In this document: positions 3,315 through 20,388 of the stretch, piece after piece
How the letters are laid out: each line of letters opens with the position of its first letter
How positions within the stretch are numbered: the first letter of the stretch is position 1
Assembly: GCA_913055845.1 (NCBI GenBank)
Contig: CAJXKO010000008.1
Span: 2,881 to 66,880 of the forward strand
DNA from: an uncultured Bacteroidota bacterium
Lineage (GTDB): Bacteria; Bacteroidota; Rhodothermia; Rhodothermales; Salinibacteraceae
Direction: 5' to 3'
DNA length: 64,000 nucleotides
The notes under the pieces: model-generated
What the model was told of the DNA's origin: nothing
Seen by the model: the letters and a program-made list of their open reading frames with translations, nothing else
The model's database searches: none
Position numbers and translations under genes: made by a program

Positions 3315-5183
3315 ATGGACCTGCTCTTTTCGGATGCCGCCCACACCCTGTGGGCCGGCGCCGTGTCCTTTCTTGTCGGCCTGGGACTCACGCCCGCGCT
3401 GGGGCGGTGGGCCCGGCGCCTCGACCTGGTCGACCGGCCGAGTGAAGACCGGTGGGGGCGGCGCCCTGTGGCCCTTCTCGGGGGAATGGCCATCGCCGGC
3501 GGACTCACGGCGGGCGTGCTCTGGGCGGGGGCGCAGTCGGTGTGGTCGTGGCCGGTGTGGGCCGGGGCGCTTCTCATGTTTGGGCTCGGGCTGGCCGATG
3601 ACCTGCGCGGGGTGACGCCCGTGATCAAGGTTCTCGGTCAGGTTGTGGCGGCGGCGCTGGTCCTGTACGCCGGGCTTGCCTTTTGGCGCGGCGGGCCGCT
3701 CTGGGTCTTTACCCCGCTCACGTTTTTGTGGGTGATCGGGGTCACCAACGCTGTCAACCTGATCGACGGCATCGATGGTCTTGCGGGCGGCGTGACGGCG
3801 GTCGCCGCCGCAACGCTCGCCGTCATTAGCGGGATTCTTGGGCACTGGCCGTTGGCCGCCGTGATGGCGGCCGTGGCGGGTGGGAGCCTGGGCTACCTCC
3901 CGTACAACGCCCCGCCGGCGCAGATTTTTATGGGGGACTGTGGGAGCCTGTTGCTTGGATACCTGCTGGCGGTCGGGGCCCTTGGCGTACAGGGCAGTGG
4001 GGAGCCGGTCGTCGGGACGCTCGTGCCGATTGCCGTCCTCGCGGTCCCCATTGCGGATACGACGTTTGTGACGATCACGCGCCTGCTGCGGGGGCAGTCG
4101 ATTCGAGACGGCGGCACCGACCACGTGCACCATCGGCTCGTGAAGCTCGGCTTTTCGGAGGGGGAGGCCGTGCTACTGCTCTGTGGGGCAAGTGGGCTGT
4201 TTGGGGCACTTGCGCTGTCCACATTCTGGATGGAAACTGCCCTGGTGTTGGCCCTGGCGGCCCTGGTCGCCGTGGCCCTGGCCGTGTTTGGGGTATACCT
4301 GGCCACGACCGGCGCCTACGCGGCCCCCGGCGCCTCGCGCACCCTCAGCACCAGTCAGCGCGTAGGGTCGTTTCTGCGGACCTACGGGGGCGGGGCCTCC
4401 TGGAAGGCCGTGGTGGGCATGATTGCGGACTTGCTCCTGGTTGGGGCTGCCTTTGTCGTGGCAATCCACCTGCGGCACGGGGGCGCGCCGCCGCCCGCCG
4501 TGTCTGACCTCGCCATGCAGGCGTTGCCGGCCCTCATCGTGGCCAAACTGGGGGTGTTCTACGCCGCGGGGCTCTATCAGGGCATCTGGTCGCACGCGGG
4601 GACGCCGGAAGTGCTGCGCCTCATCCTGGCCTCCATGGGTGGCTCTCTGGTCGTGGGGGCCGGGCTTTGGGGCTGGGCCGGTGCCGCGCCCGTAGCCCTC
4701 CTCATTATCGACTGGGGCATCACGACGCTGGTTGTAGGGGGCGTGCGGTTCGGCTTCCGGGCGTTGCGTCAGTCGGTGGTGGCGCACCAGGCGGCGGGGC
4801 GGCGCATTCTTCTGTACGGCAGTGGAGCCGACGAAATGCTGGCCCTGCGCTCGCTTCGCCGTTGGCCCGACGGCAATTTTGCGGTCGTCGGACTCCTGGA
4901 ACAGGACGAGCGGCGCCACGGCCAGCGTGTGCAGGGAGTGGAGGTCCTGGGGGGCGTGGCGGACCTATCCGCACTCTGTACCGATCGCGACGTCGACGAA
5001 GTCGTCGTGCCTGAGGGGGCGACCGATGAGGAGACGCGGCGCCGCATTCGGGCGCAGTGCCAGGAGGCAGGCGTGCCGTGTCGGTACTTTACCGTTGCGC
5101 TCCGGTCTCCTGAGGAGGCCGACTCGCCCTCCCTGTCCCGCGCTCCGGGCGACGGCGCGCCCACCCGCTCGTCGTCGGCGTAG
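3315..5183 (+). CDS. MraY/WecA-family (GT4) polyprenyl-phosphate HexNAc-1-phosphate transferase fused to a C-terminal TM plus Rossmann-like module
   Basis: 622-aa ORF. The multi-TM N-terminal half carries NAVNLIDGIDGLAGG, typical of MraY/WecA. The C-terminal ~250 aa add further TM segments and RILLYGSGADEMLAL...FAVVGLLEQDERRHGQRVQGVEVLG, which resembles the N-terminal module of WbaP/CapD-type proteins. Confidence 0.8.
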   Translation: MDLLFSDAAHTLWAGAVSFLVGLGLTPALGRWARRLDLVDRPSEDRWGRRPVALLGGMAIAGGLTAGVLWAGAQSVWSWPVWAGALLMFGLGLADDLRGVTPVIKVLGQVVAAALVLYAGLAFWRGGPLWVFTPLTFLWVIGVTNAVNLIDGIDGLAGGVTAVAAATLAVISGILGHWPLAAVMAAVAGGSLGYLPYNAPPAQIFMGDCGSLLLGYLLAVGALGVQGSGEPVVGTLVPIAVLAVPIADTTFVTITRLLRGQSIRDGGTDHVHHRLVKLGFSEGEAVLLLCGASGLFGALALSTFWMETALVLALAALVAVALAVFGVYLATTGAYAAPGASRTLSTSQRVGSFLRTYGGGASWKAVVGMIADLLLVGAAFVVAIHLRHGGAPPPAVSDLAMQALPALIVAKLGVFYAAGLYQGIWSHAGTPEVLRLILASMGGSLVVGAGLWGWAGAAPVALLIIDWGITTLVVGGVRFGFRALRQSVVAHQAAGRRILLYGSGADEMLALRSLRRWPDGNFAVVGLLEQDERRHGQRVQGVEVLGGVADLSALCTDRDVDEVVVPEGATDEETRRRIRAQCQEAGVPCRYFTVALRSPEEADSPSLSRAPGDGAPTRSSSA

Positions 5184-6287: not shown

Positions 6288-6557
6288 CGTGTCCTGGGGA
6301 AGCGGGGCAGCTCCACTCTCCCGAAGGACGAAGCGACGCGGGGTGGTCCCGGTAAAATCACCCGGAAGCTCTCCAATCCTACGGATGCTCCGTGCTCGTG
6401 GGCTGGTCCCCAGCCGATCTTCGATTCCCGGAGGGGAGGTCTGAGGGCTCCGCAGGGGGCAGGGACGGGCTGTTGCGGGATGGAGACAGAACAGCAGGTC
6501 CCCTGATTCGGGGCCGGAGGGCCGTTGCCGTGTGGCGTATCTGGGAGTCAACAGCGA

Positions 6558-7343
6558 CTACCACTGGGCAAAAACGCCCAAGGTGCCACCCGTGTGTTGA
6601 AACACCTCGTCGTCACTGTACCGAACGGCGGCGGTTACCCCAACCCCCGACGTGAGGAAATGCCGAAGGCGCACGCTCACAAAAAAGGTGCGCGTCACCA
6701 GTATCTCAGAGCGTGAATTGATGGGTTCGACGCTCCTCCCAAGCCCGCCCTCCACGTCGACGTAGGAGAGGGAAGAGGCCGGGCCGTAGAAGCGACGTGC
6801 GCCAATGCGCTGGGCAACGGCCCATGTATCCGGTCGAGGCCCGAGGGCGGTGCGCGTTCGAAGGTACCACGAGCCCACGTACCGACCGAGGCCAGGCCCG
6901 AACTGATGAACGTCCTCGCTCCGGTATCGCCGCCAGCTATACCGCCCCGATAGCTCCCACGCCCCGACAGATTGAAAGACGCCGGACTGAAGGGTCCCCT
7001 GGGGCCGGACATCTGCGGTTGGGCTGAGGCCCGCTTTCACGTGCCCGTAGGCCCCGGCCCAGAGATCGGGCCATGCGTCGATCTGCAGGCCCCCGTCCGT
7101 GGTGCCGAAGCGCTGCTGCCGGATGACGGTCGCCATTAGCGTTCCGTGGGATGTCTCTCGTTTGAGAGAGACAGTCCACCGGCGCCAGTTCTGCCTCCCT
7201 TCCGAGAGGCGGTCATAATCGTAGCGCGTGGCCGTCTCCCAGACGCGCTCAGTCAACCCAGGGTGCTGGGCGGCCGTCTGCCTCGCGCCTCCGAAGGCCA
7301 CGACGCACATCAGTGCGGCAAAAAGCAGGGCGTGATTACGCAT
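6558..7343 (-). CDS. YaiO-like outer-membrane beta-barrel protein
   Basis: ORF 6558..7595. I moved the start to ATG 7343 (MRNHALLFAALMCVVAFGGARQTAAQ signal peptide), 2 nt after the TAA of the upstream GT2 gene. Aromatic-rich alternating strands, RFGTTDGGLQIDAWPDLW segment, C-terminal ...GVFAQW. YaiO assignment is from memory of the family pattern. Confidence 0.55.
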   Translation of the reverse strand: MRNHALLFAALMCVVAFGGARQTAAQHPGLTERVWETATRYDYDRLSEGRQNWRRWTVSLKRETSHGTLMATVIRQQRFGTTDGGLQIDAWPDLWAGAYGHVKAGLSPTADVRPQGTLQSGVFQSVGAWELSGRYSWRRYRSEDVHQFGPGLGRYVGSWYLRTRTALGPRPDTWAVAQRIGARRFYGPASSLSYVDVEGGLGRSVEPINSRSEILVTRTFFVSVRLRHFLTSGVGVTAAVRYSDDEVFQHTGGTLGVFAQW

Positions 7344-8739
7344 TGGAAGTATTGAATCCTGTCCGTTCGATTGTGCCCCACTCCTCCTTGCTGCGGAGAT
7401 ACGACCACAGGCCCTTGATTCGCCACCAGGCGTTGAGCTGGCGATAGCCAAAGTTGTCGAGGATGGAGAGAAGAAGAAGCTGGAGAAGATCCGACGTCTT
7501 TTGGTATCGGTGAAAAGAAAGTTCTTCCATGGCCACGGCACTGAGCGAGAGCGCCATCCCGAGGGCGAAGGCGACCAGGAAAAATGCCAGGGCAATCGGC
7601 GCCGAGAGAGTACCGGTCGCCAGGGCGACGACGAACCAGGCGTATCCCAGAAATTCGAGAATCACGCCGAAGGTCTCCAGAAAGTAGAAGAATGGATACG
7701 CCAGCAGGCCGACCCGACCGTAGCGCGGGTTCAAGAGCATCCGCTGATGGCGAATCATCGAGTCCACCATTCCCCGGTGCCACCGATCGCGCTGACTCCC
7801 CAGGCCGGAAAGGGTCGACGGCACTTCTGTCCAGGCGACCGGATCGGGAATGAAGCGGACCCGATACTCTTCCCCTCTCTCTCGGAGCCACCGATGCATC
7901 CGAAGCACCAGCTCTAGGTCCTCCGTCACGCTATCAGTTTCGTATCCCCCGACCTCCACAACCGTCTCACGGCGAAACATCCCGAACGCACCTGAAATGA
8001 TGACCATTGCCCCGAGCGTGTCCCACCCGAGGCGCCCGAAAAAGAACGCACGGAGGTACTCGACGACCTGGAGTTTCGAGAGCAGTCTTTGAGGCATCGA
8101 TACGTTCTGAACACGGCCGGACTGGATTGTGCAGCCGTTCGCGACGCGAATGATGCCCCCCACTGCCACAGTGGAGGTGTTTTCCAGAAAGGGACGCACT
8201 ATGCGAATAAGCCCTTCCCGCTCCACAATTGTGTCCGCGTCCATCGCACAGAAGAAAGACGTCTCGCAGAAGTTGACTCCTGCGTTTAGGGCATCGGCTT
8301 TCCCGCCGTTTTCCTTGTCGATGACCCAGAGGTCTGGATGAGTACGGCTCCGGTAGACCTGTCGGATCGACTCGGTCGGCAGGTCGCTCGTCGGGGGGCG
8401 CGAGGTCGGCTGGAGTTTGAACGTGTTGCGTAGTCGTTCGAGTGTGGCGTCGGTCGACCCATCGTTCACCACCAAGACCTCAAAGTTTGGGTAGTCGACG
8501 TTCAGGAAGGCACGGATTGACGCGACACAGGTCGACTCCTCATTGTAGGTTGGGGCAATGAGGGTAATGGAGGGGAGGCTTTCCGAGGCGAGCGCCTCTT
8601 CGGGGTTGTAGGCATCGAGCACGTAGCGGTATCGCACCACTCCCCAAAACGTGATGATGCTCATGAAGACGTACCCCCCATTTAGGACCACGAAGTAGCC
8701 GATCAGTACGTACGTGGTCCACTGTAGCAGCGCGTTCAT
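7336..8739 (-). CDS. Processive family-2 glycosyltransferase (PgaC/IcaA/BcsA/NodC-type polysaccharide synthase)
   Basis: 467 aa. One N-terminal and several C-terminal TM segments. Motifs seen: VVNDGSTDAT, GGKADALNAG, AMDADT, SVTEDLEL (TED) and QRDRWHRG (Q-x-x-R-W). Confidence 0.85.
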   Translation of the reverse strand: MNALLQWTTYVLIGYFVVLNGGYVFMSIITFWGVVRYRYVLDAYNPEEALASESLPSITLIAPTYNEESTCVASIRAFLNVDYPNFEVLVVNDGSTDATLERLRNTFKLQPTSRPPTSDLPTESIRQVYRSRTHPDLWVIDKENGGKADALNAGVNFCETSFFCAMDADTIVEREGLIRIVRPFLENTSTVAVGGIIRVANGCTIQSGRVQNVSMPQRLLSKLQVVEYLRAFFFGRLGWDTLGAMVIISGAFGMFRRETVVEVGGYETDSVTEDLELVLRMHRWLRERGEEYRVRFIPDPVAWTEVPSTLSGLGSQRDRWHRGMVDSMIRHQRMLLNPRYGRVGLLAYPFFYFLETFGVILEFLGYAWFVVALATGTLSAPIALAFFLVAFALGMALSLSAVAMEELSFHRYQKTSDLLQLLLLSILDNFGYRQLNAWWRIKGLWSYLRSKEEWGTIERTGFNTSNA

Positions 8740-9836
8740 TGGTCGAAGGAGAGGAGAAGATCAGAAGCGAGTGCTGCCCGCGGATGGTCGAGGGTCCGCA
8801 GTTTGCGAAGGGGGGTTATGGAGCCGATTTCGATGAGGCTCCGCGCCGCGCCAAGGGCGACCCATCGCGACTCGTCACCGTACACGAGCGCCCCTAGAAG
8901 GACCTCGTCCTCGGGAGTCCCCAGCTGTCCAAGTGCCCGGGCCGCATGCAGGCGAACGAAGGAGGCCGGTGCGTGGCAGTAGGCGCGTATGAGCGGTCCG
9001 TGTACGCCTTTTCCCAGGTGTTTGAGCAAGCGAAGGAGACTCGCCGTCACCTTGGGGAATTGAAGCATGTCTCGAAACTTCGCGTCCTCGAGCAGCCAGG
9101 CCGCTGCGGCGACTGAGGCGGTATCCCGAAGTTCTCGGAGTGTCTCTGCGCAACAGATGCGTACGAAGGGGGGACGTTCATCATCGGCCATCGCGGCCCG
9201 CATTGTCGGGGCCGCCGCCTCGCCCAGATGAACGAGGGAGGAACTAAGGTGCCGAGGGTCCACATGGGCCAACCGCGGCAGGCAGTCGAGAAGGCGTTCG
9301 GCATCCGCGGCCCCCCCGACCCTTGCAAGCGAATGCACCGTCCGTTCTACGACTCGGGGGGAGGAATCGTCAAGCATTTGTCGAAGGGCGGCTGCTTGCT
9401 CGGGGCCGCCGAGAAGCCCAAGCCGCTGGACGGCTCGCGCCCGAACCAGTGAGCGTCGGGACGACAGGTTCGCTTTCACCCGCGGCAGGAAGGGAGCCGC
9501 CAAGGCCTGAATGATCTGTTTTTCGGAGCCATCGACGACCGTGGCGTACGGCATCAGGGCCTCCAAAAAAGAACCGTAGTACTTCTTTGGTACCGTGTCG
9601 GTGAGAGTTTGGGGCCTGAGGTCCCCCGCGAGGACCGTCACTATCTGTGCGTCCCAGTCCTCCTTTTGGCGCTTCCAGACCCGCGTCTGGTACCGCGACC
9701 AGACGTGGCTCCCGAGTGCAAACGCGGCAAAGCACACCGACAGGAGCATTAGGGCCCCAGATCCGAGAATGAGCGTCGCGATGAGGTCGGAGGCTGGGGA
9801 AAAGACCTCGAACGGGGAGGAAAGATTGGGGCGCAC
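8736..9836 (-). CDS. Membrane-anchored HEAT-repeat protein
   Basis: 366 aa. N-terminal TM segment (LIATLILGSGALMLLSVCFAAFALG) followed by repeated helical pairs such as RARAVQRLGLLGGPEQAAALRQMLDDSSPRVVERTVHSLARVGG and LHAARALGQLGTPEDEVLLGAL. Its TGA overlaps the GT2 ATG (ATGA at 8736-8739). Confidence 0.7.
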   Translation of the reverse strand: MRPNLSSPFEVFSPASDLIATLILGSGALMLLSVCFAAFALGSHVWSRYQTRVWKRQKEDWDAQIVTVLAGDLRPQTLTDTVPKKYYGSFLEALMPYATVVDGSEKQIIQALAAPFLPRVKANLSSRRSLVRARAVQRLGLLGGPEQAAALRQMLDDSSPRVVERTVHSLARVGGAADAERLLDCLPRLAHVDPRHLSSSLVHLGEAAAPTMRAAMADDERPPFVRICCAETLRELRDTASVAAAAWLLEDAKFRDMLQFPKVTASLLRLLKHLGKGVHGPLIRAYCHAPASFVRLHAARALGQLGTPEDEVLLGALVYGDESRWVALGAARSLIEIGSITPLRKLRTLDHPRAALASDLLLSFDQ

Positions 9837-9873
9837 AGGGCCAAGGAAGTCAAGTCCACGCAGGAGAGGCTGG

Positions 9874-10278
9874 TTAGGCGAGGGCCGGCACGGGCCTCTC
9901 GGTCGCCGTCGACAAAAGACGGGGCACCCGAAGAATTCGGGTCGTCACAATATTGGGGGCGAACGGCCGAGTAAAATAATCGAAGGCATTCATGTCGAAG
10001 GCGCGAATCACGTCCTCGTCGTTGCCGCGCCGTCCCATGAGCACGAAGGGGGGCTGCAGCGGAGGAACCGATTGCAGCAGCTCCAGGCCCGTTCGGCCGG
10101 GGAGGCCCGTTTCGGCCACCACGACGCCGAATGAGGTGTCCCGAATGTGCTGCAGGGCCTGCTCCCCATCGGGGGCCCGAACGACCGTGGCGCCCTTCCG
10201 GCACAACCGGTCTTCCAGCAGGTTTGCGCTCGGCTTATGAGAGAGGGCAAGCAAAATGGGCTCCTTCAGTTCTGACAT
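9874..10278 (-). CDS. Stand-alone receiver (REC) domain protein lacking the phospho-acceptor residues
   Basis: 134 aa with a CheY-like alpha/beta pattern. A hand alignment to CheY gives DD to LS (ILLALSH), D57 to E (VVVAETGLPGRTG), T87 to G (FVLMGRRG) and K109 to R (YFTRPF). Confidence 0.75.
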   Translation of the reverse strand: MSELKEPILLALSHKPSANLLEDRLCRKGATVVRAPDGEQALQHIRDTSFGVVVAETGLPGRTGLELLQSVPPLQPPFVLMGRRGNDEDVIRAFDMNAFDYFTRPFAPNIVTTRILRVPRLLSTATERPVPALA

Positions 10279-10745
10279 CGAAATGAACCAGGGGCGTGCT
10301 TGGGGCTCGTTTGTGCCGTGAAAAAGGCGGAGCCTCCAGTGCCTCTACGGGTGGGGGCTGAAGGTGGGGGAATGGACGAAGGGCGTCCGCCGTCTCCGTG
10401 GCATGGTTGCTCCCAACACGATCACAAACACTGTGCCGTACGGCCCGACCGGTCCAAAAGACCCCTATTCCGGGTGGGTTTTTATCGGGCAACATCCCTT
10501 TGGCTGGTCTGAGCTTGGGCGCTTCCCAAAGACCCGGTTCGCCGGCTTTATTGAGGAGCACTTGGTTGTCCGAAGAGGACCTTGAGACGCGGTGCCCAAT
10601 CCGCCGCTGGGGGGTGGCCTAGGCCCCGCTCTTCGTCTCCGCTACAGTAGTGGGCTGCGCGGGCGAGATCAGAAAATGTCTCCAGGATCCTGGCTCTCAA
10701 GCAGCCCCCCACGGGCCCATTGCACTACGGTCCGCCAACACCAAT

Positions 10746-10777
10746 ATCCGGCAACGCTCGCATCCGGCAACGCTCGC
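10746..10777. repeat. Perfect 16-nt tandem duplication ATCCGGCAACGCTCGC x2
   Basis: Read directly: 10746-10761 equals 10762-10777. Lies in the 720-nt gap between the divergent REC operon and the S9 peptidase gene. Confidence 0.9.
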
Positions 10778-10999
10778 CCGAACGTCACCGACTCCCTGGG
10801 GGAAGCGCTCGGCCCCGTTCCGCAACAGGGCGTAACAGTGCGTGGCGGACGCCCGTGGTCACGAATGCACAGAGGCAATTCCCTGGAATTCGGGCGCTCG
10901 ATGGTTCCTGCCTGTCCGAGGATCCGCGGGGCTAAAGCCTCCCGCCCCTTTTGAGAAGGGCGGCTCACGACACTCTACGGCCGACACTGCTCGTTTCCC

Positions 11000-13192
11000 A
11001 TGTTGGGCGTTGCGTCCACACCAGAGAGACTCGCTTCAGTCGTTGCGTTTGTTGACCGTCGTCTCTGTCGGGTTGGGAGAAGAGGGTTCTGTCTCCTCCT
11101 TGTCCTATGGATCGGGGTACCTCCCGCCCTTGCTCAGTCCACGGAGCGCCATTCCCCGGGGGCCGAGCGGCTGCCCGAGCCAACTGACCTCCTTGCCTTT
11201 GCCGATCCGCAAGAACTTGCGCTTTCTCCCGATGGGGAGGCAGTGCTTCTCCGAACTCGTCGAGGCCTCCCCGACAGCAGCACGTATGCCGACAAGACGC
11301 GGCTCGTACCGACGGGGCCTGCGGCGGCAAAGCCCCTTGATGTGCCGCCCGGAGCGCACGAGTTTGAGTGGCTGCCGGAGGGGGAGCGCCTTGCCTACCT
11401 CGCCTCGACCGACCAAGGTAACCAGGTGTGGGTAAAGGCGATCGACGCCGATTCTGCTCGGCCGGTCACCCGTCACCCAGAGGGCGTGGAAAGTTTTTCC
11501 ATCTCTCCCTCGGGAACCCAACTCGCCTACGTGACACGAGCTCGGGTCGACGTTCCGGACCGAAAAAGAGAAGACACAAAAAGTGAGAGGAAGGGGAAAG
11601 AAGTGAACATGGAGACCTTCATGTACCTTCGGCTTCGTGGAGCGCGATTAACCGCCGCCCCACCCCCGCCCTCTCGGAAGCAACTTTGGACGAAGAGCCT
11701 GGGCGGTGGGGAAGCCAGAAAAGTGGCCGATACCCTCTCTGTTGACGCCTATCGATGGTCTCCATCCGGGCATCGGCTCGCCCTTGCGGCGACCCCCTCT
11801 CGCCTTCGCGCCCAGGATCCTCAGGTGCCGATGTTGCGGACCGACCTCTACGTTTACGACCTGGAAGCACGGCGCCTACGCACGATTCACAGGGGCCATG
11901 CGGGAGGAGAGACCATCTACGACGGGGCTGTCTCCTATTCATCCCCATTCTGGGGGCCGGATGGAGACCGGCTCGGATTCCTGCGGACGGACCACAGCGA
12001 TCGGTACGCAGCCGTCGCGGAACTGGGCATTCGAGATCTGAGTGCCCAGAAGACCCGATTTGTCACCACGTCGGATCATCCAGAGCTGTACAACCCGACG
12101 TTTCACTGGCACAGCCCCGACTCGCTTCTTGTCGAGTACACGAAGCAGGGGCGACGTGGGCTTTTTCGTCTCTCCCCAAAGGACGGAACGACAGCTCCCG
12201 TGTGGCGGCCAGTGCAGTACGCCAGTGGCTTTTCATTCAGTGCCCGCGGAGCCCGAGTCGCGTGGGTACAGCAAGGCATTGGGGCCCCTCCGGAGGTGCA
12301 CGTGGCGGACCGCTCCTTCAAATCCGCCCGGCGCATTTCCCAACTCAACCAAGATCTCCGAACGAACGTCTGGTTGCCGAACGGGGAGCCGGTCACCTGG
12401 AGCTCGAGCGACGGGACTGCCGTCCAGGGATGGTTCGTCCCTCCGCGTGTCCGATCCTCGTCCGCGCCCCCACCTCCACTGATCGTGTTGCTGCACGGCG
12501 GTCCGGGCATGCCTTCGACCAACCAGTACCACCCCTACGATGGAGGGTGGCTGTATCCGGTGCAGGTCTTCGCGGCCCGGGGCTACGCGGTCTTCCTGCC
12601 GAATTACAGGCAGACGGGGTCTTTCGGGAAAGATTTCCAGCAGGTTGAGGCTCCCGACAAGGAAGCCGTCGCGGACGTCCTGACCGGGATCGACCACCTG
12701 GCATCCGAAGGACAGATCGATTCGACCCGCGTCGGCCTCATGGGACACAGCCACGGTGCCTGGCTGGGGCCCTTGGTTGCCGAAGAACGTCCGACGTTTG
12801 AGGCGGCCTCGTTTGCCGAAGGGGCAAGCAACTATCTTTCCCTCTACGGCCAGTGGTCCGGTTGGCGAAACCGGGGCCTCCACGAGTACAGCGTCGGTGG
12901 ATCTCCCTACGACCGCACGCAACGATACGTGGACCTTTCTGTGCCCTTCCAGGACCGCTTCACGGCGAATACCCCCACACTCCTCGAATACGGACAAAAC
13001 GGCACAGCCATCCAGGGCCTCGAGACGGCCACGGCGCTTTGGCGACACGGTACGCCCCACGAGCTCATCGTCTATCCCGGCGTCGGGCACGGCATCCGAG
13101 AACCAGCCATCCTTCTTGCGTCGATGCAGCGCAACCTCCAGTGGTTTGGGGAGTGGCTCCCGGTAGACTCGGCGTCGACCGCGGATGAGTAA
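11000..13192 (+). CDS. S9-family serine peptidase (prolyl oligopeptidase / acylaminoacyl-peptidase type) with N-terminal beta-propeller
   Basis: 730 aa with a signal-like N-terminus. Propeller-like repeats (SPDGE..., SPSGTQLAY, SPSGHRLAL). C-terminal alpha/beta hydrolase with nucleophile elbow GLMGHSHGAW and a late GVGHG histidine. Confidence 0.85.
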   Translation: MLGVASTPERLASVVAFVDRRLCRVGRRGFCLLLVLWIGVPPALAQSTERHSPGAERLPEPTDLLAFADPQELALSPDGEAVLLRTRRGLPDSSTYADKTRLVPTGPAAAKPLDVPPGAHEFEWLPEGERLAYLASTDQGNQVWVKAIDADSARPVTRHPEGVESFSISPSGTQLAYVTRARVDVPDRKREDTKSERKGKEVNMETFMYLRLRGARLTAAPPPPSRKQLWTKSLGGGEARKVADTLSVDAYRWSPSGHRLALAATPSRLRAQDPQVPMLRTDLYVYDLEARRLRTIHRGHAGGETIYDGAVSYSSPFWGPDGDRLGFLRTDHSDRYAAVAELGIRDLSAQKTRFVTTSDHPELYNPTFHWHSPDSLLVEYTKQGRRGLFRLSPKDGTTAPVWRPVQYASGFSFSARGARVAWVQQGIGAPPEVHVADRSFKSARRISQLNQDLRTNVWLPNGEPVTWSSSDGTAVQGWFVPPRVRSSSAPPPPLIVLLHGGPGMPSTNQYHPYDGGWLYPVQVFAARGYAVFLPNYRQTGSFGKDFQQVEAPDKEAVADVLTGIDHLASEGQIDSTRVGLMGHSHGAWLGPLVAEERPTFEAASFAEGASNYLSLYGQWSGWRNRGLHEYSVGGSPYDRTQRYVDLSVPFQDRFTANTPTLLEYGQNGTAIQGLETATALWRHGTPHELIVYPGVGHGIREPAILLASMQRNLQWFGEWLPVDSASTADE

Positions 13193-13326
13193 AAAAGCCC
13201 CTCCGTAAAGGCCCGCCGCGTCCGGTGCCAGACTCGCCAGTGCCGTTTGGCGGGTGAGCATCTCGCTTCAAATGCACGTCTCCACTTCCCTCAACAGTTC
13301 CTGCGGGGCCATTCCTGGTGGTCCCT

Positions 13327-13794
13327 TTACGGTTCGAAGGTGGTAATCACAAAAATAATCAAGGGGGTGTCGCCCGCGTTGCGGACCGCGTGAAACGCGT
13401 TGCCTCGGACCGTTGTGATCGTGCCTTTGTCGAGGGGGTAGCTGCGCGGCTCGGCATCAGCGTGGTCCTTCTCCAGGTACGTGCCGTGGCCGTGCATCAC
13501 GACGTAGACTTCTTGCTCGCCTCGATCCCCGTGCGTGTGAAAGCCGACGCTGTCCTTCCCCGTGGGAAGCACCATGTAGGCCCCAATTCGATTGTTAACG
13601 AGTTCGTCGTCTTCAAACATCTGCAGCAAGTACACGGTACCGGAGCCGTCGTACATGTCCTCCCGCTTGTCGTAGCGAACGGCCGAGCGCGAGGGGGCAC
13701 CGTAATGGTGAACCGTCGTGTCCATCACCTCATCGAGCAGGGCATCGAGGCGTTGTTTTTCGCTGGGGGAGAGGGGAAGACGCGTGCGGGCCAT
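13327..13794 (-). CDS. Cupin-domain protein
   Basis: ORF 13327..13878. The preferred start is ATG 13794 (MARTRLPLSPSEKQ...). The GFHTHGDRGEQEVYVVMHGHGTYL...GNAFHAVRNAG pattern is a two-motif cupin signature. Confidence 0.7.
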   Translation of the reverse strand: MARTRLPLSPSEKQRLDALLDEVMDTTVHHYGAPSRSAVRYDKREDMYDGSGTVYLLQMFEDDELVNNRIGAYMVLPTGKDSVGFHTHGDRGEQEVYVVMHGHGTYLEKDHADAEPRSYPLDKGTITTVRGNAFHAVRNAGDTPLIIFVITTFEP

Positions 13795-13929
13795 GGCGGG
13801 AGAAGAGAGTAGATGGTTTAGGACGTCAACAGGAGGCGCTGGGCTTGAGTCGTGCTTCGGCCCTGAAGTCCGGGGCACGCCTGAACTCGAAGACCGTTCG
13901 GCCGAGCGGCCGGACCCAAGGCCCCCATC

Positions 13930-14445
13930 CTACTGCGAGACGAATCCCTGTTCCGCGTGGCGCATCCGGTACGCCCCGTAGCCGCCCCCAAACAGGGCAA
14001 GTAAAAACGTTCCAAGCGGGCTGAGGGGCACTTCCGTTCCTCCCCCACAACCCGCGTTCATGGGCTTACAGAGAAGATTCCCACCTGGGTTCTCGCAGCA
14101 CTTCTCGTTCGGTCCGCAGTTCCCACACCCCTGGGCCTGCGTGGTCCCGTACGTCCCGCGGGCATCCCGGTCGGGGAATCCGCGCGACCGGTCCCGCTCC
14201 GGAGCAGCACGCCCGCGTTCTCGTCGATGCGAGGGCCCTGCACCAGGCGATCCGCTGCCTGGAGTGAAGATAGGGGGGGCTGGAGCCTGTGTTCTCGCTC
14301 CTGGTGCGGGAGGAGCGGTTGGCTCGGCCCATTGGGGAAGGTCCTGTGCGGAGCTAGGGGCCGGGGAGGGCGCTCCGAGAAGGACGAAAATAACGAGTAG
14401 GGCTGTTAGCCAGGAGGAGGGAGTCTGCAGTACCGCGATTCTCAT
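13930..14445 (-). CDS. Secreted Pro-rich / Cys-rich protein with C-terminal hydrophobic anchor and basic tail
   Basis: ORF 13930..14475. Start ATG 14445 gives the signal peptide MRIAVLQTPSSWLTALLVIFVLLGAPSPAPSSAQD. It continues with a Pro-rich linker, then a Cys cluster (CGNCGPNEKCCENPGGNLLCKPMNAGC), then EVPLSPLGTFLLALFGGGYGAYRMRH. Confidence 0.5.
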   Translation of the reverse strand: MRIAVLQTPSSWLTALLVIFVLLGAPSPAPSSAQDLPQWAEPTAPPAPGARTQAPAPPIFTPGSGSPGAGPSHRRERGRAAPERDRSRGFPDRDARGTYGTTQAQGCGNCGPNEKCCENPGGNLLCKPMNAGCGGGTEVPLSPLGTFLLALFGGGYGAYRMRHAEQGFVSQ

Positions 14446-14807
14446 CTCCGTTGTAGGTGGGGTGGGGGGATACACTACCCCCGAAAGACACGTCGGAGTT
14501 TAAAAGTTTCGGGCCAACGTGAAAGAATGAAAACGTGCCGGGGATTACGACGGGCTTTCACAGGCCGTCTCGGTCCCCTGTTCAGGGCGGTACCCCACGG
14601 CCGGCGCCAAAAACGACGGCGGGGCCGCCCTCGTCTGGAACGAGCCCGTTCAGGGTCGTCCCAGAATTCCCAGCGCTGAGAGGGCAGTACGTGCGCCGCT
14701 GCCGCCGGCATTGGGAAATGCTGGTCTTGTTTGCGATGTTGAACTTATGAGGCAGGGGATGCCGCCAAGGGAGCCCCGCATGTTTGTCTGGCACACCGAC
14801 CGTTCCC

Positions 14808-17309
14808 ATGGCTCACGACGCAACCGGCGACCGTCCCGCTCCCAAGGATAACTCGTCGGAGCGAGCGAAGGCGTCGGGACCCGAAGACAATCGGGCGGCG
14901 AGCCATTCCGCTGACGCGGCGCGGCCGCAGCGATCGCTTCTCAGCGACCTGATTCGCCGCCGCATTCCGCAGGTGCTGGCCGGCTATCTCGGGGTCACCT
15001 GGACCCTCTTCGAATTCATGAAGTGGCTCACCAATCAGTACCTGGTATCGCCGTATCTGGGGCAGGCCCTCCTCTTCGGCCTCCTCCTCTTCGTGCCCTC
15101 CGTCGTGCTGGTCACCTACCGGCACGGCCGCCCCGGTCCCGACGCCTGGACCCAGACCGAGCGCGTCGGAATTGCCGGGAATGCTGCGCTCGTCGCGATT
15201 GTCCTACTCGTGGCGTTTGGGGGCACCGAACTCGGGTCGATGGTACGGGCCGTGGAGGGGGGGCGAGAGACGTCGGCGGCTGCCTCTGGCCCCTCGCGTC
15301 CCGCCAGTGGAAATTTGCCCGGCGATCGTGCCGACCGCCGCACGGTTCCGAAGAAAGAGTTTCGTCGGCGCGTGGCGGTCTTTTACTTCCGGGAGGCTAA
15401 CGGCGCACGGGCCGACACGGCGCTCCGGCGGATGGTCCCGGCTGCGCTCCAGGCGGATCTGGCACAGGATCTGTTCGTCAGCCTCTTTCCGCCGGACCAG
15501 TTTGACAGTGAGCTGCGGGAGCGGGGCTACGGGGGCGGGCTTGGCGTGCCCCTCGGGCTCAAGCAGGACGTTGCCCAGCGCGTCAATGCGCAGTACGTGC
15601 TCTCCGGACGGGTGGGGCGGGCCGAGCGCGAGGTCCAGCTCACCACGCGGCTCCGGAAGACAACGACGGGAAAGCAGGTTGCAGCGCGGACGTTCGCGGG
15701 AGACACGCTGTTTGCTCTCATCGACCGGGCGAGTCGGCGGCTCAAGCAGGACCTGGGGCTGCCCGCGGCGCACCTAGAGCGCGCGACGGACCTTCCGGTG
15801 ACACAGGTGTTTACCGCCTCGGTCCCAGCGGCGAAGCACTACGCGCAGGGGCACTATCTTGACGCGATCCGGGAGGGGGAAAACCGGCGCGCCCTGGCGT
15901 CGTACCGGCAGGCGACTGCCATCGACTCCACCTTCGCCACCGCACAGATCGGAAAGGGACGGGTCTTCTGGGAGCTAGGCCAGCGCGAGAAGGCCGCCCA
16001 GGCGTTCCGGACGGCCCAGCGCCATAGCTATCGACTGCCCGAGACCCGAAAGTACTGGCTGAAGGCCCTGCGTCTCCTCCGGATCGAGAACCGGCCCGAG
16101 GCGGCCCTCCGGGTCTGTGAACAGTGGACGACCCTCTATCCCCACGACGTGATGGCCTGGGTGCTGAAAGGCGTCCTCCACGACCAGCGTTCTCAGCCCG
16201 AGGCGGTCCTCGAAAGCTACCGGCAGGCCATCACCCTGGCCCCGGAGCACAAGAAGGCCGCGACGGGGCTAATTCGGGGCCTTCTCCGCACCGGTCGGGT
16301 CGACTCAGCGGTTCGGCGTGCCGAATCGTTCGTTGACGATCGTCCGCGGGACGGGGAGGGGCATCTGCTGGCGGGGACGGCCCACTGGATGCGGGGGGAT
16401 CTGGAAGAGGCCGAAGCGGGCCTTCGGCGCGCACAGGGGCTTGATGCGCCACGCGCAACGTTTCGGCTGGTTGCCCTGCACCAAGCGCGGGGCCGGTTTG
16501 AGGAGGCGCTCTCGGCAATTCAACGGCGGATGCAGGCGGCGGACGGCGATCCCCGGGCCCGGTTTCGACGGTGGTACCAGCGCTGGCTTCGGGGCGAAAT
16601 CGACCAGAGCATCGCGGAGCTAGACACCCTCCGGGCCCAGAGCCCCGCGCCGTCGGGGGAGGCGTATCCGGCCCTGACGACTCGCGTCTGCGAGTACTAC
16701 GACGGCCTCGAGAAGCGCCTCGTTGTACGGGCGTACGAGCGCCTGCAACGGCGCGCAGGGGACGAGACCGATGAGGACGTGTCCCCCCATCGTGCGCGAA
16801 CTATGGAACTGGCCCTCGCGCACTGCGGCATTGCGGCAGGACGGCTCGCGGCGGCGCGTCGGCACCTGAGCCGTGCCGACTCGATGGCGCGCACGGAGAC
16901 GGGGCGCCCCGGGCTCCGAAGCGAGTACCTCCGGGCCCGCCTGCGAGAGAAACAGGGCGCGTACAGGCGGGCCGCCCAGCAGTACGACGCGCTGATGGAG
17001 ACCTGGTCCGTCCCGGCCCGCCTCACGTGGACCTACCGGCTTCCGTGCCTTCACCAGGCCCGGGCCTACCAGCAAATCGGACAGGCCCAGAAGGCCGAAG
17101 CAGCGTACCGGGCGGCCCTAACCATCCGCCCGGCCGATCCTCGCCTTAACCTCCACTACGGCCGGTTTTTGGCCCGGCAAGGACGCGACGACGCGGCCCG
17201 GACGCATCTGCAGCGTGCCGTAGATGCCTGGGTCCCGGCCGATCCGGACTTCCGCCCGAAACAGCGGGCCCAGGCGTGGGCCGATTCGCTCGGCGGAGCA
17301 TCGGTCTGA
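14808..17309 (+). CDS. Membrane-anchored TPR-repeat protein
   Basis: ORF 14784..17309 opens on TTG; the first ATG is 14808. Two TM segments (LLFGLLLFVPSVVLVTY, IAGNAALVAIVLLVAFGG), a periplasmic TolB-N/CsgG-like region, then many TPR-like units (YRQAITLAPEH, YRAALTIRPADPRLNLHYGRFLARQG). Confidence 0.7.
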   Translation: MAHDATGDRPAPKDNSSERAKASGPEDNRAASHSADAARPQRSLLSDLIRRRIPQVLAGYLGVTWTLFEFMKWLTNQYLVSPYLGQALLFGLLLFVPSVVLVTYRHGRPGPDAWTQTERVGIAGNAALVAIVLLVAFGGTELGSMVRAVEGGRETSAAASGPSRPASGNLPGDRADRRTVPKKEFRRRVAVFYFREANGARADTALRRMVPAALQADLAQDLFVSLFPPDQFDSELRERGYGGGLGVPLGLKQDVAQRVNAQYVLSGRVGRAEREVQLTTRLRKTTTGKQVAARTFAGDTLFALIDRASRRLKQDLGLPAAHLERATDLPVTQVFTASVPAAKHYAQGHYLDAIREGENRRALASYRQATAIDSTFATAQIGKGRVFWELGQREKAAQAFRTAQRHSYRLPETRKYWLKALRLLRIENRPEAALRVCEQWTTLYPHDVMAWVLKGVLHDQRSQPEAVLESYRQAITLAPEHKKAATGLIRGLLRTGRVDSAVRRAESFVDDRPRDGEGHLLAGTAHWMRGDLEEAEAGLRRAQGLDAPRATFRLVALHQARGRFEEALSAIQRRMQAADGDPRARFRRWYQRWLRGEIDQSIAELDTLRAQSPAPSGEAYPALTTRVCEYYDGLEKRLVVRAYERLQRRAGDETDEDVSPHRARTMELALAHCGIAAGRLAAARRHLSRADSMARTETGRPGLRSEYLRARLREKQGAYRRAAQQYDALMETWSVPARLTWTYRLPCLHQARAYQQIGQAQKAEAAYRAALTIRPADPRLNLHYGRFLARQGRDDAARTHLQRAVDAWVPADPDFRPKQRAQAWADSLGGASV

Positions 17310-17345: not shown

Positions 17346-18056
17346 CTACTCGCCTCCCTGCGCGGGGCGCCCGGCCTGCGTGGGGGAGCGCTCCTCGGCG
17401 TACAGGTCGATCTGGAGTTGGAGGGGGGTTCCGCCGGTCCGCGACCCAACGAGGTCCATTCCGCCCCGCCAGGCCCCGACGTGCACGTGGGGGGCTCGCG
17501 AGTTGCCATTGTTGCCTACCTTGGCCACCACGTCGCCGGCCTGGACCGTCTCGCCTTCGTTGACGGCAATCTCCCGGACGTGAGCGTAGACGACGGTAAT
17601 GTCTTCACGCTTGTCACGGAAGATGATGAGGCCGGGCTGCGCGTCCCGGTTCATCGTACCGGGGGCATTAACTGTATCCGGGGCCGCCGTTCGAACGACG
17701 GTGCCCTGGAGTGGGGCTCGCACGTCGCGCCGCCACCCGAACCAGTCCTCGTTCTGTTCTCCGTCCGTGCCGGGGCGATAGGTCCTCGGGATGCCGTCGT
17801 CCCCCACCCGGGCCACCATAAAGTCCCGGGCGAGTTGGTCGCCCAGTCGAAGTTGAGAGCGGTAGGTGTGCTCCCGAGTCTTCAGGGTGAGCCGGTCCCC
17901 GCTGGCATCGACGGGGGGATGAATGAGGACCGACTGGGTGAGGGTGTCGCGTTCGGGATTCAATCCTCGCTGGGCCTGGGCCGCCCCCGGGAGGGCGAAC
18001 CACAGGAGGGAAGCAGTGAGAAGGGCGCTAAAACTGCGTGTGAGCACGTGGGACAT
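17346..18056 (-). CDS. M23-family metallopeptidase
   Basis: ORF 17346..18527. The likely start is ATG 18056 or 18071 (MSHVLTRSFSALLTASLLWFALPGAAQAQ signal peptide). C-terminal VVYAHVREIAVNEGETVQAGDVVAKVGNNGNSRAPHVHVG is the LytM/M23 signature. Confidence 0.8.
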   Translation of the reverse strand: MSHVLTRSFSALLTASLLWFALPGAAQAQRGLNPERDTLTQSVLIHPPVDASGDRLTLKTREHTYRSQLRLGDQLARDFMVARVGDDGIPRTYRPGTDGEQNEDWFGWRRDVRAPLQGTVVRTAAPDTVNAPGTMNRDAQPGLIIFRDKREDITVVYAHVREIAVNEGETVQAGDVVAKVGNNGNSRAPHVHVGAWRGGMDLVGSRTGGTPLQLQIDLYAEERSPTQAGRPAQGGE

Positions 18057-18321
18057 GGCCGTCGAATGCATTGGTGAGAGGGGATGGCTAAATGGCGGCG
18101 GGGCTGTTGGCACCATGCTTTGTCTTCGCCCTGCGTCTTCGCAGGCCGACCTTTCACAACCTGCGCGTAAAGGCAGACACCTCGCCCTCTGGTCTGGTGC
18201 GGTGCATTCGACGAGCCGGTCCTCTCGCTCGATCAGCCGGCCCAAATTGATGAGAGGCGCTCCACTCTGTAGGTTGCGCCGTGCATTGGTCTCTTCTCTC
18301 ACGCGCCCGGCCCCTTGTCCC

Positions 18322-20388
18322 ATGATCCGCAAGTCCGTCCGTTGCGTCACCGCCCTTCTGCTCTTGCTCCTGCTTGCCGGCCCCCTGACCGTCGTGGGGC
18401 AGGACGCTCCCTTCTCGCGGATGGACGTGTTCGAGCTGGAGTGGGTCGAGGACCCGCAAATCTCGCCCGATGGAGAGCGCGTCGTGTACGTGCGGCGCGG
18501 CATGGACGTGATGGAGGACCGGCGCACCGGCGCCTTGTGGCTGATCGAGCCCGACGGCGACCGTCACGTGAAGCTCACGGGGCGGGACGTGAACGAGTCG
18601 AGTCCCCGCTGGTCGCCGGATGGCTCGAAGATCGCCTTCACGAGCACCAGCGAGACGCACGGGACTGAGATTTACGTGCACTGGCTGGCGGAGAGCCGGA
18701 CGACCCGGGTCACGCAGCTCGAGCACGCCCCGAGCGGGCTCTCGTGGTCGCCCAACGGAGAGCAGATCGCGTTTTCGGCCAAGGTGTCCGCGCCGGAGCC
18801 CCAGTTCGTGACGCCGCCGGATCCGCCGGAGGGGGCCGACTGGGCGGAGCCGCCCCGCGTGGAGACGCGCCTGAACCACGAGCAGGACGGCGTCGGGGTG
18901 CTCGATTACGGCTACGACCACCTGTTCGTCGTGTCCGCAACGGGCGGGACGGCCCGGCAGGTAACCACCGGCAATTACCACCACGACGGCCGCCCGGGCT
19001 GGACGGCCGATGGCGAGGCGCTCATTTTCTCGGCCAACCGACACGAGAACTGGGCGCGTGAGCGCCGCAACTCGGAGCTCTACCGCGTCTCCGTGGAGGG
19101 GGACACGATCATGCCCCTTACCGACCGCTTTGGCCCCGATTATGCGCCCCACGTTTCCCCGAGCGGCGATCGGGTGGCCTATCTAGGCTACGACGATGAG
19201 GTGCAGACCTACCAGGTCACGAACCTCTACGTGATGAACACGGACGGCTCCGGCGCGCGCCGCGTGGACATGGGGCTGGACCGCTCCGTCGACGACATTG
19301 CCTGGGCCCCGGACGGCGACGGCCTCTATCTGCAGTACGAGGACGAGGGCACGACCATGCTGGGGCACACCACCCTGGAAGGCGACACCACGGGCGTGGC
19401 CTCCCAACTGGGCGGCACGTCCATTGGGCGGCCGTACGGGGGCGGCGACTTTTCGGTCGCCTCCACCGGGCGCCTCGCCATGAACCACACCACCCCGTCC
19501 CATCCCGCTGAGCTGGTCGTTGCGCGCCGCGGAGAGGCGCCCCAGCAGGCGACAGACCTGAACGGCGACCTGCTCGATCGGCGGGCGCTCGGCACCGTGG
19601 AGGAGATTCGCTACACGTCCTCGAAGGACGGCCGCGAGTTGCACGGGTGGGTGGTCACGCCGCCGGGCTATACCCCCGACCGCCGCTATCCGTTGCTCGT
19701 GGAAATTCACGGCGGCCCCATTAGCAACTACGGCGACCGCTTCTCGGCGGAGATTCAGCTGTACGCAGCGGCCGGGTACGTCGTCTTCTACCCCAATGCC
19801 CGGGGCAGCACCAGCTACGGCGAGGCGTTTGGCAACCTCCTCTACAATAACTTCTCGGGCGGGGAGTACCAGGACATCATCGACGGCGTAAACCGTCTCA
19901 TTGACGACGGCGTCGTGGCGCCGGACAGCCTGTACGTGACCGGGGGCAGCGCAGGGGGCACGTCGGCGGCCTGGATTGTAGGCAAGACCGATCGGTTTCG
20001 GGCCGCGGCGGTGCAGAAGCCCGTCACGAACTGGATTAGCAAGACCATGGCGGCGGACAACTACTACGCCTACGCCGACTACCGGTACCCGGGGCAATCC
20101 TGGCAGAACCCGATGGCATACTGGGAGGTCTCCCCGGTCTCCCTGCTCGACAGCATGAACACGCCCACCATGGTACTGGTCGGGGCGGCGGACCTCCGTA
20201 CGCCGCCCTGGCAGGCGAAGCAGCTTTACAACGGGCTTCAGGTCCGGGGTGTGGAGACGGCCTACGTGGAAATCCCCGGCGCCTCCCACGCGATTTCCCG
20301 CCGTCCCAGCCAGCTCATCACGAAGGTCGACCACGTGCTCGCCTGGTTCGAGCGGTACCGGTCGACGAGAGGGGCCGGTAGCGAATAG
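18322..20388 (+). CDS. S9-family serine peptidase (acylaminoacyl-peptidase type)
   Basis: ORF 17923..20388. I moved the start to ATG 18322 (MIRKSVRCVTALLLLLLLAGPLTVVGQ signal peptide). WD/TolB-like propeller repeats (SPDGERVVY, SPDGSKIAF, SPNGEQIAF, SPSGDRVAY). Hydrolase domain with YVTGGSAGG and GASHAI. Confidence 0.85.
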   Translation: MIRKSVRCVTALLLLLLLAGPLTVVGQDAPFSRMDVFELEWVEDPQISPDGERVVYVRRGMDVMEDRRTGALWLIEPDGDRHVKLTGRDVNESSPRWSPDGSKIAFTSTSETHGTEIYVHWLAESRTTRVTQLEHAPSGLSWSPNGEQIAFSAKVSAPEPQFVTPPDPPEGADWAEPPRVETRLNHEQDGVGVLDYGYDHLFVVSATGGTARQVTTGNYHHDGRPGWTADGEALIFSANRHENWARERRNSELYRVSVEGDTIMPLTDRFGPDYAPHVSPSGDRVAYLGYDDEVQTYQVTNLYVMNTDGSGARRVDMGLDRSVDDIAWAPDGDGLYLQYEDEGTTMLGHTTLEGDTTGVASQLGGTSIGRPYGGGDFSVASTGRLAMNHTTPSHPAELVVARRGEAPQQATDLNGDLLDRRALGTVEEIRYTSSKDGRELHGWVVTPPGYTPDRRYPLLVEIHGGPISNYGDRFSAEIQLYAAAGYVVFYPNARGSTSYGEAFGNLLYNNFSGGEYQDIIDGVNRLIDDGVVAPDSLYVTGGSAGGTSAAWIVGKTDRFRAAAVQKPVTNWISKTMAADNYYAYADYRYPGQSWQNPMAYWEVSPVSLLDSMNTPTMVLVGAADLRTPPWQAKQLYNGLQVRGVETAYVEIPGASHAISRRPSQLITKVDHVLAWFERYRSTRGAGSE

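Follow-up and report, generated by a model that had tools for sequence, protein, structure and literature searches.

The operon

The 64-kb window analysed here, a stretch of 64,000 nucleotides (nt) from contig CAJXKO010000008.1, belongs to a member of the Salinibacteraceae, with homologues annotated as Salinivenus or Salinibacter. On its minus strand, between positions 6558 and 10278, lies a run of four genes encoding, in order, a receiver (REC) protein, a HEAT-repeat protein with a transmembrane helix, a family-2 glycosyltransferase (GT2) and an outer-membrane beta-barrel of the YaiO family (Table 1), which we interpret as a candidate module for the synthase-dependent secretion of a glycan. 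The stop codon of the receiver gene is separated from the GTG start of the HEAT gene by a spacer of 37 nt, the HEAT and GT2 genes share a 4-nt stop/start overlap (ATGA), and the ATG of the barrel gene lies upstream of the GT2 TAA in an 8-nt overlap that reads ATGCGTAA. The genes of the operon are translationally coupled. An earlier note on this DNA had described four minus-strand genes packed as one unit, and its coordinates, the 37-nt gap and the ATGA were all borne out; at the last junction its coordinates were correct but its wording, which placed the TAA 2 nt before the ATG, was loose, because the two genes overlap. Independent metagenome gene calls on contigs of 100% identity give products of exactly 134, 366, 467 and 261 amino acids (aa); they place the next gene past the barrel on the opposite strand and call no fifth gene.

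Table 1. Features of the REC-HEAT-GT2-YaiO operon, in positions of the window
Feature	Position	Strand	Size and basis
Stand-alone pseudo-receiver (REC*)	9874..10278	-	134 aa; PF00072, 2e-12
Single-pass membrane protein with HEAT solenoid	8736..9836	-	366 aa, GTG start; HEAT_2, 1.7e-18
Transmembrane helix of the HEAT protein, about aa 18-43	9708..9785	-	Kyte-Doolittle peak 2.3
PgaC-like family-2 glycosyltransferase (synthase)	7336..8739	-	467 aa; Pfam GT2 families
QRDRW motif of the synthase, aa 316-320	7780..7794	-	sequence reading
YaiO-family outer-membrane beta-barrel with signal peptide	6558..7343	-	261 aa; TIGR04390, 3.7e-46, full length
ATGA overlap, HEAT stop/GT2 start	8736..8739	-	sequence reading
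ATGCGTAA overlap, barrel start/GT2 stop	7336..7343	-	sequence reading
Presumed promoter region, lying between the operon and the S9 peptidase gene that diverges from it	10279..10999	.	inference only

A processive-type synthase with a HEAT partner predicted to be cytoplasmic

The glycosyltransferase matches the Pfam families Glyco_tranf_2_3 and Glycos_transf_2 above their cutoffs and carries the motifs DGS93, DAD167, TED272 and QRDRW316, together with hydrophobic segments at aa 10-35, 343-378 and 367-405. Residues D93, G94, S95, D167, A168, D169, E273, D274, Q316, R317, R319 and W320 are invariant in 15 diverse orthologues; at the first position of the TED motif most of these have G, the ED being invariant. 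By its motifs (D, DxD, (T/G)ED and Q(Q/R)xRW) the protein is a predicted GT-A enzyme of the processive membrane synthase class to which BcsA, PgaC, NodC and HAS belong, as the earlier note had read from the same motif set and flanking transmembrane helices. Its best match in NCBIfam is PgaC_IcaA (TIGR03937), at 157.5 bits against an equivalog cutoff of 422, followed by the next family at 102 bits; matches to CelA (68 bits, cutoff 699), to NodC (44 bits) and to Chitin_synth_2 (weak) were also seen. It is 28% identical to E. coli PgaC over 360 aa (E 8e-33) and has family-specific insertions relative to that protein. A sequence search of the PDB with the GT2 gave no close relative (BcsA at 1e-8).

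The HEAT protein matches HEAT_2 (PF13646) at 67 bits, against a cutoff of 27.7, and has a single hydrophobic helix at aa 14-47. Its AlphaFold2 model (predicted local distance difference test, pLDDT, 91) has a long helix over aa 15-69 and then about 18 short helices in about nine hairpins, the repeated helical hairpins that characterise an alpha-solenoid of the HEAT/PBS-lyase type, and the model predicts that the protein is one. Foldseek searches with this model and profile matches in the PDB returned alphaRep, armadillo and CpcE, generic alpha-solenoids that are not discriminating, and a PDB sequence search with the protein found no close relative. We examined 17 members of the family for the charges that flank the membrane helix. 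Lysine or arginine occurs zero or one time before the helix in all 17, and three to nine times in the 20 residues after it in 16 of them, the remaining member having one. The HEAT solenoid is predicted to be cytoplasmic because the positive-inside rule gives an N-out/C-in topology in all 17 members, and therefore it would lie on the same side of the membrane as the receiver and the catalytic domain, as a partner of the receiver. The earlier note had placed the solenoid where TPR scaffolds usually sit, a position that this topology contradicts; on the same grounds we rejected the HEAT protein as a replacement for periplasmic TPR repeats.

At E<=1e-30 a profile search collected about 1,480 clusters of HEAT proteins at 50% identity, and the best-scoring members are mostly full-length matches in a single stretch, with lengths of 345-370 aa (about 355 aa). 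In a metagenome-assembled genome of Salinivenus (locus L011, positions 6490-8004, equal to P0174) the receiver and the transmembrane HEAT protein are read as one open reading frame (ORF) of 504 aa; it was seen only once, and loss of a stop codon may explain it.

The YaiO barrel

The barrel matches the YaiO model TIGR04390 over its whole length (positions 1-230 of 230) at 158 bits, against a cutoff of 32, and PF19413 at 71 bits, against a cutoff of 23.9, matches that agree with the outer-membrane barrel proposed in the earlier note. Its AlphaFold2 model (pLDDT 87.7) has an N-terminal signal-peptide helix and 14 strands, and its C-terminal residue is Trp. The full-length match, the signal peptide and the modelled all-beta barrel together mark it as a bona fide member of the YaiO family. 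Foldseek matched the model to generic porins, OmpG giving the best TM-score at about 0.6, with PelB (9h80_M) and PgaA (4y25) among many matches; the predicted fold supports a pore, and nothing more specific than that.

Pfam searches found no TPR repeats in the barrel of the window. Relatives from Marinimicrobia, Balneolaceae, Sericytochromatia and some Salinibacteraceae encode TPR-YaiO proteins of 420-445 aa in which an N-terminal, periplasmic TPR region precedes the barrel, an arrangement that mirrors the design of PgaA, BcsC and PelB. Two assemblies contain a GT2::YaiO single ORF (L089 8001-10205, P0077; L013 7980-10472; 734 and 830 aa). These ORFs keep a hydrophobic segment resembling a signal peptide at the junction, and they are either real fusions, possibly cleaved by signal peptidase, or artefacts of frameshift or assembly.

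Conservation across phyla

A scan with the GT2 alignment, with one genome per species, gave at least 598 confirmed loci. Neighbourhoods were analysed in the best 80 of these (45-81% identity), in which ORFs were called and then searched with profiles built iteratively from the four proteins of the window. The 80 loci span about ten phyla, coming from Salinibacteraceae, other Rhodothermales, Balneolaceae, Gemmatimonadota, Marinimicrobia, Elusimicrobia, Sericytochromatia, Acidimicrobiia, Chloroflexi and Lentisphaeria. Wherever a surveyed locus includes DNA upstream of the GT2 gene, the transmembrane HEAT gene adjoins it, a recurrence that puts the arrangement far beyond chance. HEAT is the gene immediately upstream of GT2 in 72 of 77 loci when a strict distance rule is applied, those that fall outside the rule being offset by over-long ORFs or divergent (Sericytochromatia), and the gene immediately upstream of HEAT contains a receiver in 67 of 76.

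The barrel behaves differently from the other three genes. We counted YaiO genes within 4.5 kb in the 70 loci with enough downstream DNA and found them in 27, all in diderm groups. YaiO is present in all Salinibacteraceae, Rhodothermales and Balneolaceae loci, and stands directly downstream of GT2 there and in Marinimicrobia; by group it was found in 10 of 12 Marinimicrobia, two of three Sericytochromatia and six of 35 Gemmatimonadota loci, and within the same distance in none of five Acidimicrobiia, one Chloroflexi and two Elusimicrobia loci. That no barrel gene turned up in the Actinomycetota or Chloroflexi loci agrees with a role in the outer membrane. Since HEAT and the receiver are near-constant beside GT2 and YaiO is not, the conserved unit is a REC-HEAT-GT2 triad and not a tetrad, and the YaiO barrel is a lineage-specific back end to it; the synteny of four genes anticipated by the earlier note therefore holds for the first three but extends to the fourth in a minority of loci only.

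Several lineages carry further genes beside the module. Next to TPR-YaiO some relatives encode a protein of 820-860 aa that joins a Sulfatase domain (alkaline-phosphatase superfamily, similar to LtaS, OpgB and BcsG) to a C-terminal TPR region (L005 10494-13067 and L079 10864-13338; also L010 and L083), which by analogy suggests a periplasmic decoration of the polymer in those lineages. In Acidimicrobiia (L067 9562-10875; also L071 and L072) a gene of the LCP (LytR_cpsA_psr) family adjoins GT2 on the opposite strand, a hint that monoderms may attach the product to the wall. In Marinimicrobia conserved genes for proteins of 391-412, 445-478 and 407 aa follow TPR-YaiO (L019 10741-11928; L033 12007-13347 and 13604-14827), with homologues in L035, L041, L046, L048, L060, L063 and L068. 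The first two had no match in Pfam or, by sequence, in the PDB, and the 407-aa protein gave only a weak, sub-threshold CBM-like match; all are candidates for additional components of the module.

The receiver and its upstream regulators

The first protein of the operon has the receiver fold according to PF00072 (47.7 bits, cutoff 30.2), with all of its phosphorylation residues replaced in the alignment: S13-H14 stand for the acidic pair, E56 for the acceptor Asp, G82 for the Thr and R104 for the Lys. This degeneration is confined to homologues from the Salinibacteraceae; elsewhere the receiver next to HEAT keeps the canonical residues (DD, D, T/S, K). The phosphorylation-incompetent receiver described in the earlier note is therefore real in the window but is not a trait of the family. 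The regulators found next to HEAT differ among lineages: a stand-alone canonical REC in Balneolaceae, Hpt-REC-REC in Acidimicrobiia, Hpt-REC-GGDEF-REC with a stand-alone REC in Marinimicrobia, and REC-GGDEF-REC preceded by a MASE3-PAS hybrid histidine kinase in Gemmatimonadota. The GGDEF domain of the Marinimicrobia proteins reads GGEEF, with its metal and substrate residues and its RxxD I-site intact, and that of the Gemmatimonadota proteins is degenerate and mostly lacks RxxD. Because the receivers outside the Salinibacteraceae are canonical and belong to Hpt or hybrid-kinase relays, the family has an identifiable input pathway.

Salinibacter ruber (GCA_014197235) has the same four genes as the window, with identities of 59% (REC*), 46% (HEAT) and 73% (GT2) and with YaiO present. 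In that genome (L093 1235-5211) genes for a GAF-GGDEF and a GAF-GGDEF-EAL protein stand directly upstream of REC*-HEAT-GT2-YaiO on the same strand. Pfam and NCBIfam searches detected no receptor for cyclic di-GMP (c-di-GMP) of the PilZ, MshEN, I-site GGDEF* or GIL type among the four window proteins. The module family is wired to two-component and, in places, to c-di-GMP signalling, and the window holds a stripped-down version with a pseudo-receiver.

Proposed mechanism and the points against it

We propose that the operon encodes a synthase-dependent glycan secretion module in which docking of the receiver on the HEAT protein acts as the switch, and from the sequence evidence we put the probability of this reading at about 0.65. 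As a member of its family the PgaC-like GT2 would polymerise a UDP-sugar in the cytoplasm and thread the growing chain through its own transmembrane helices. Synteny points to the HEAT protein as an obligatory partner of the synthase: its transmembrane helix may pack against the synthase, as PgaD does with PgaC, leaving the cytoplasmic solenoid as a docking platform for a receiver whose phosphorylation state would switch synthesis. In most lineages a phosphorylatable receiver would be fed by Hpt or hybrid-kinase relays, in some cases with an active GGEEF diguanylate cyclase alongside; in the Salinibacteraceae, where the phosphorylation sites have been lost, the receiver is probably a fixed structural or locked-state subunit. 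In diderm lineages the 14-stranded YaiO barrel, bare in the window and fused to TPR in relatives, would conduct the chain over the outer membrane. Our best guess for the product is a homopolymer of beta-linked N-acetylhexosamine or hexose. The core of the earlier note, that this is an operon-like export module pairing a processive-type GT2 with an outer-membrane barrel, holds in silico by its domains, its synteny and the GT2::YaiO fusions.

Several observations weigh against this proposal. The contacts between receiver and HEAT and between HEAT and GT2 are predicted from synteny alone, and the REC::HEAT ORF of the Salinivenus genome would split its two parts across the membrane, in conflict with the predicted topology. 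The GT2 scores below every equivalog cutoff in NCBIfam, so that no equivalog assigns its polymer, and the window contains no periplasmic modifying enzyme of the deacetylase, hydrolase or lyase kind. The barrel has 14 strands, against 16-18 in the known exopolysaccharide porins, and its structural matches are generic porins. Finally, 29 of the 35 Gemmatimonadota loci lack a barrel gene in cis, the genes downstream being unrelated (S9 peptidase, photolyase, CcmF); outer-membrane export is therefore not universal for the family.

A bolder version of the proposal holds that REC-HEAT is an unrecognised ancient switch for processive GT2 synthases, in which docking of a phospho-receiver on the membrane-anchored solenoid replaces c-di-GMP/PilZ gating, and that YaiO barrels, whether or not they carry TPR repeats, form a third architectural class of exopolysaccharide porin. 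We regard it as tentative, with odds somewhat short of even. If it is true, it would provide the first function for the orphan yaiS-yaiP-yaiX-yaiO cluster of E. coli.

Comparison with known systems and alternative readings

The PgaABCD system of E. coli is among the known systems closest to the module. Its barrel, PgaA, has 16 strands, its export requires deacetylation of the polymer, and it is regulated by the binding of c-di-GMP at the PgaC-PgaD interface. Like Pga, the operon has a small membrane GT2 with N- and C-terminal hydrophobic helices (PgaC being its best curated match), a synthase that is translationally coupled to a membrane partner (PgaD in the one, the transmembrane HEAT protein in the other) and an outer-membrane barrel that is TPR-fused in PgaA and in relatives of the window. 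It differs from Pga in a GT2 that scores far under the PgaC cutoff, in a partner that is a 366-aa HEAT solenoid and not PgaD, in a YaiO-family barrel with two predicted strands fewer, and in a receiver domain in place of c-di-GMP at the PgaC-PgaD interface. These features bear on the idea that the operon is a divergent Pga-type system in which the GT2 makes poly-beta-1,6-N-acetylglucosamine (PNAG) and HEAT and YaiO replace PgaD and PgaA. The lead of PgaC_IcaA over the next curated family (157 vs 102 bits), the identity to E. coli PgaC and the similar size and placement of hydrophobic segments all speak for it, but the score is far below the cutoff, the insertions are specific to the new family, and searches of the four proteins, of the neighbouring genes and of the relatives surveyed detected neither the PgaB deacetylase/hydrolase, PgaD nor the PgaA TPR-porin, even though Pga export needs deacetylation. 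We consider PNAG synthesis by such a route unlikely.

For the regulatory side of the module the nearest mechanistic precedent, by analogy, is BcsE of the E. coli type II cellulose system, a cytoplasmic tandem of degenerate receiver and GGDEF domains that is brought to the membrane by the small partner BcsF and tunes BcsA (PMC7439463). BcsE and BcsF can be compared with the REC-GGDEF*-REC proteins that stand beside the membrane-anchored HEAT protein in relatives of the window, the TPR-sulfatase of relatives with the phosphoethanolamine transferase BcsG, and their TPR-porin with BcsC. The parallel has limits: PilZ, BcsB and BcsQ/R are absent here, the CelA match reaches a tenth of its cutoff, an RxxD I-site is missing from most of the degenerate GGDEF domains in Gemmatimonadota, and receivers adjacent to HEAT are canonical outside the Salinibacteraceae. 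The likeness to the Pel system of Pseudomonas is conceptual. In Pel the membrane-anchored, TPR-like alpha-solenoid PelE bridges the degenerate-GGDEF protein PelD and the polymerising machinery, much as we envisage for the HEAT solenoid, and Foldseek matched the YaiO model to the PelB barrel, among others. Pel relies on the cytosolic GT4 enzyme PelF and a separate transporter, PelG, in contrast to the membrane GT2 of the present module, and no Pel family was detected in the four window proteins by Pfam or NCBIfam.

An independent association of GT2 with YaiO exists in E. coli K-12. At positions 380069-384616 (L088 6070-10617), all on one strand, lie yaiS (deacetylase), yaiP (membrane GT2), yaiX (acyltransferase, split by IS2) and yaiO, the last of which ends the cluster downstream of yaiP as the barrel gene does in the window. 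YaiP is 25% identical to the window GT2 and lacks QxxRW in the aligned region, the YaiO barrels of the two cannot be aligned by BLASTP, and the cluster combines its deacetylase and disrupted acyltransferase with no HEAT or REC gene. It looks like a cryptic or decayed polysaccharide cluster.

The product might instead stay in the envelope, as a periplasmic or osmoregulated glucan, a wall-linked glycan or a glycolipid, with the barrel serving as an optional pore for uptake or release. Most Gemmatimonadota loci lack an outer-membrane component in cis, monoderm Acidimicrobiia carry the triad beside an LCP ligase gene, the membrane TPR-sulfatase of relatives belongs to the superfamily of LtaS, OpgB and BcsG, and the host is an extreme halophile. 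These points are offset by the overlap of the YaiO gene with the stop codon of the synthase, by the resemblance of TPR-YaiO to the export porins PgaA and BcsC, by the existence of GT2::YaiO fusions and by the failure of Pfam searches to detect an OpgG/OpgD-like periplasmic partner among the four proteins and their neighbours. Retention in the envelope seems to us improbable, to much the same degree as the PNAG reading. A synthase of short chito-oligosaccharide signals of the NodC kind, with a dedicated exit pore, is very improbable: the size of the GT2 is near that of NodC and weak NodC and Chitin_synth_2 matches exist, but the NodC score of 44 bits is far under that for PgaC, modifying genes of the nodulation type are absent, and TPR-porins typify the export of polymers. 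Mere adjacency of unrelated genes, for which one can cite only that no promoter or terminator could be called, is effectively refuted by synteny, with an order kept over about ten phyla, start/stop overlaps of 4 and 8 nt and gene fusions.

Significance

Synthase-dependent polysaccharides such as cellulose, PNAG, alginate and Pel are central to biofilm biology. To our knowledge the systems that make them form a short list and are essentially all gated by c-di-GMP. What we describe is a candidate system of this kind for polysaccharide secretion, whose accessory proteins are distinct and occur very widely, and which is undescribed in curated families or in the searchable literature. No NCBIfam equivalog exists for the GT2 or the HEAT protein, database names of homologues are limited to 'HEAT repeat protein', 'hypothetical' or 'glycosyltransferase family 2', and no description of a HEAT+GT2+REC system or of a link between YaiO and polysaccharides was found in the literature. 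A systematic survey of synthase-dependent operons from 2020 mentions neither HEAT, a response regulator, YaiO nor Gemmatimonadota, and a review passage on YaiO reports only that attempts to model its structure gave poor results, naming no function for it. The earlier note was right that the system has no named counterpart, curated equivalogs and searchable literature both having been consulted, and profile searches agree with its statement that the operon lacks a TPR-porin, PgaB, PgaD, BcsB and PilZ (for PilZ and BcsB, no match in Pfam or NCBIfam among the four proteins).

The candidate module is widespread, with at least 598 species-level loci, about 1,480 HEAT clusters and about ten phyla represented, many of which are little-studied environmental groups (Gemmatimonadota, Marinimicrobia, Sericytochromatia and Salinibacteraceae). 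The presence of a receiver and a HEAT protein as conserved partners points to direct two-component control of the synthase. A testable function is also offered for the YaiO family, whose namesake in E. coli has none reported, and cultured hosts (Salinibacter ruber and Gracilimonas) make the hypothesis testable.

Surroundings of the operon in the window

The genes that flank the operon, a divergent S9 peptidase gene and a GT4 gene on the opposite strand, are unrelated to it. In the presumed promoter region a sigma-70 scan found no minus-strand promoter, and a 108-aa ORF there has no Pfam match and is not called as a gene by metagenome callers; promoter and terminator scans of the operon gave nothing callable. 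Two alternative gene models were rejected. A TTG at 7595, which the mechanical ORF list gives as the start of the barrel, was set aside in favour of the ATG at 7343, which is supported by the signal peptide and by the independent gene calls, and a 163-aa ORF at 6551-6060 was dismissed as a fifth gene, having no Pfam match and no support from independent gene callers.

Over positions 7000-14000, which take in the operon and the peptidase gene next to it, the GC content falls to 0.60-0.64 from 0.66-0.70 on either side, and the module sits in differing genomic contexts among the Salinibacteraceae (locus L005 compared with the window). Both observations are compatible with lateral acquisition of the module. 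Genes for S9/Tricorn-type peptidases are found in the window at 11000-13192 (+) and 17923-20388 (+) and near the module elsewhere (L016 9397-11526, L089 11707-14085 and L093 9713-12883). Such neighbours recur in the Salinibacteraceae and in two Gemmatimonadota loci, an adjacency that may be coincidental, such peptidases being abundant in these phyla.

Searched by tblastn, the rest of the window yielded neither a TPR-sulfatase gene nor one for TPR-YaiO. An 841-aa protein encoded at 14784-17309 (+), with TPR in its C-terminal half and no assignment for its N-terminal 360 aa, was considered as an equivalent of the TPR-sulfatase and rejected, as it is unrelated to the protein of the relatives. At 3315-5183 (+) the window encodes a 622-aa protein with Glycos_transf_4 and CoA_binding_3 domains, of the polyprenyl-phosphate sugar-phosphate transferase type, which belongs to a separate, lipid-carrier-dependent glycan pathway.

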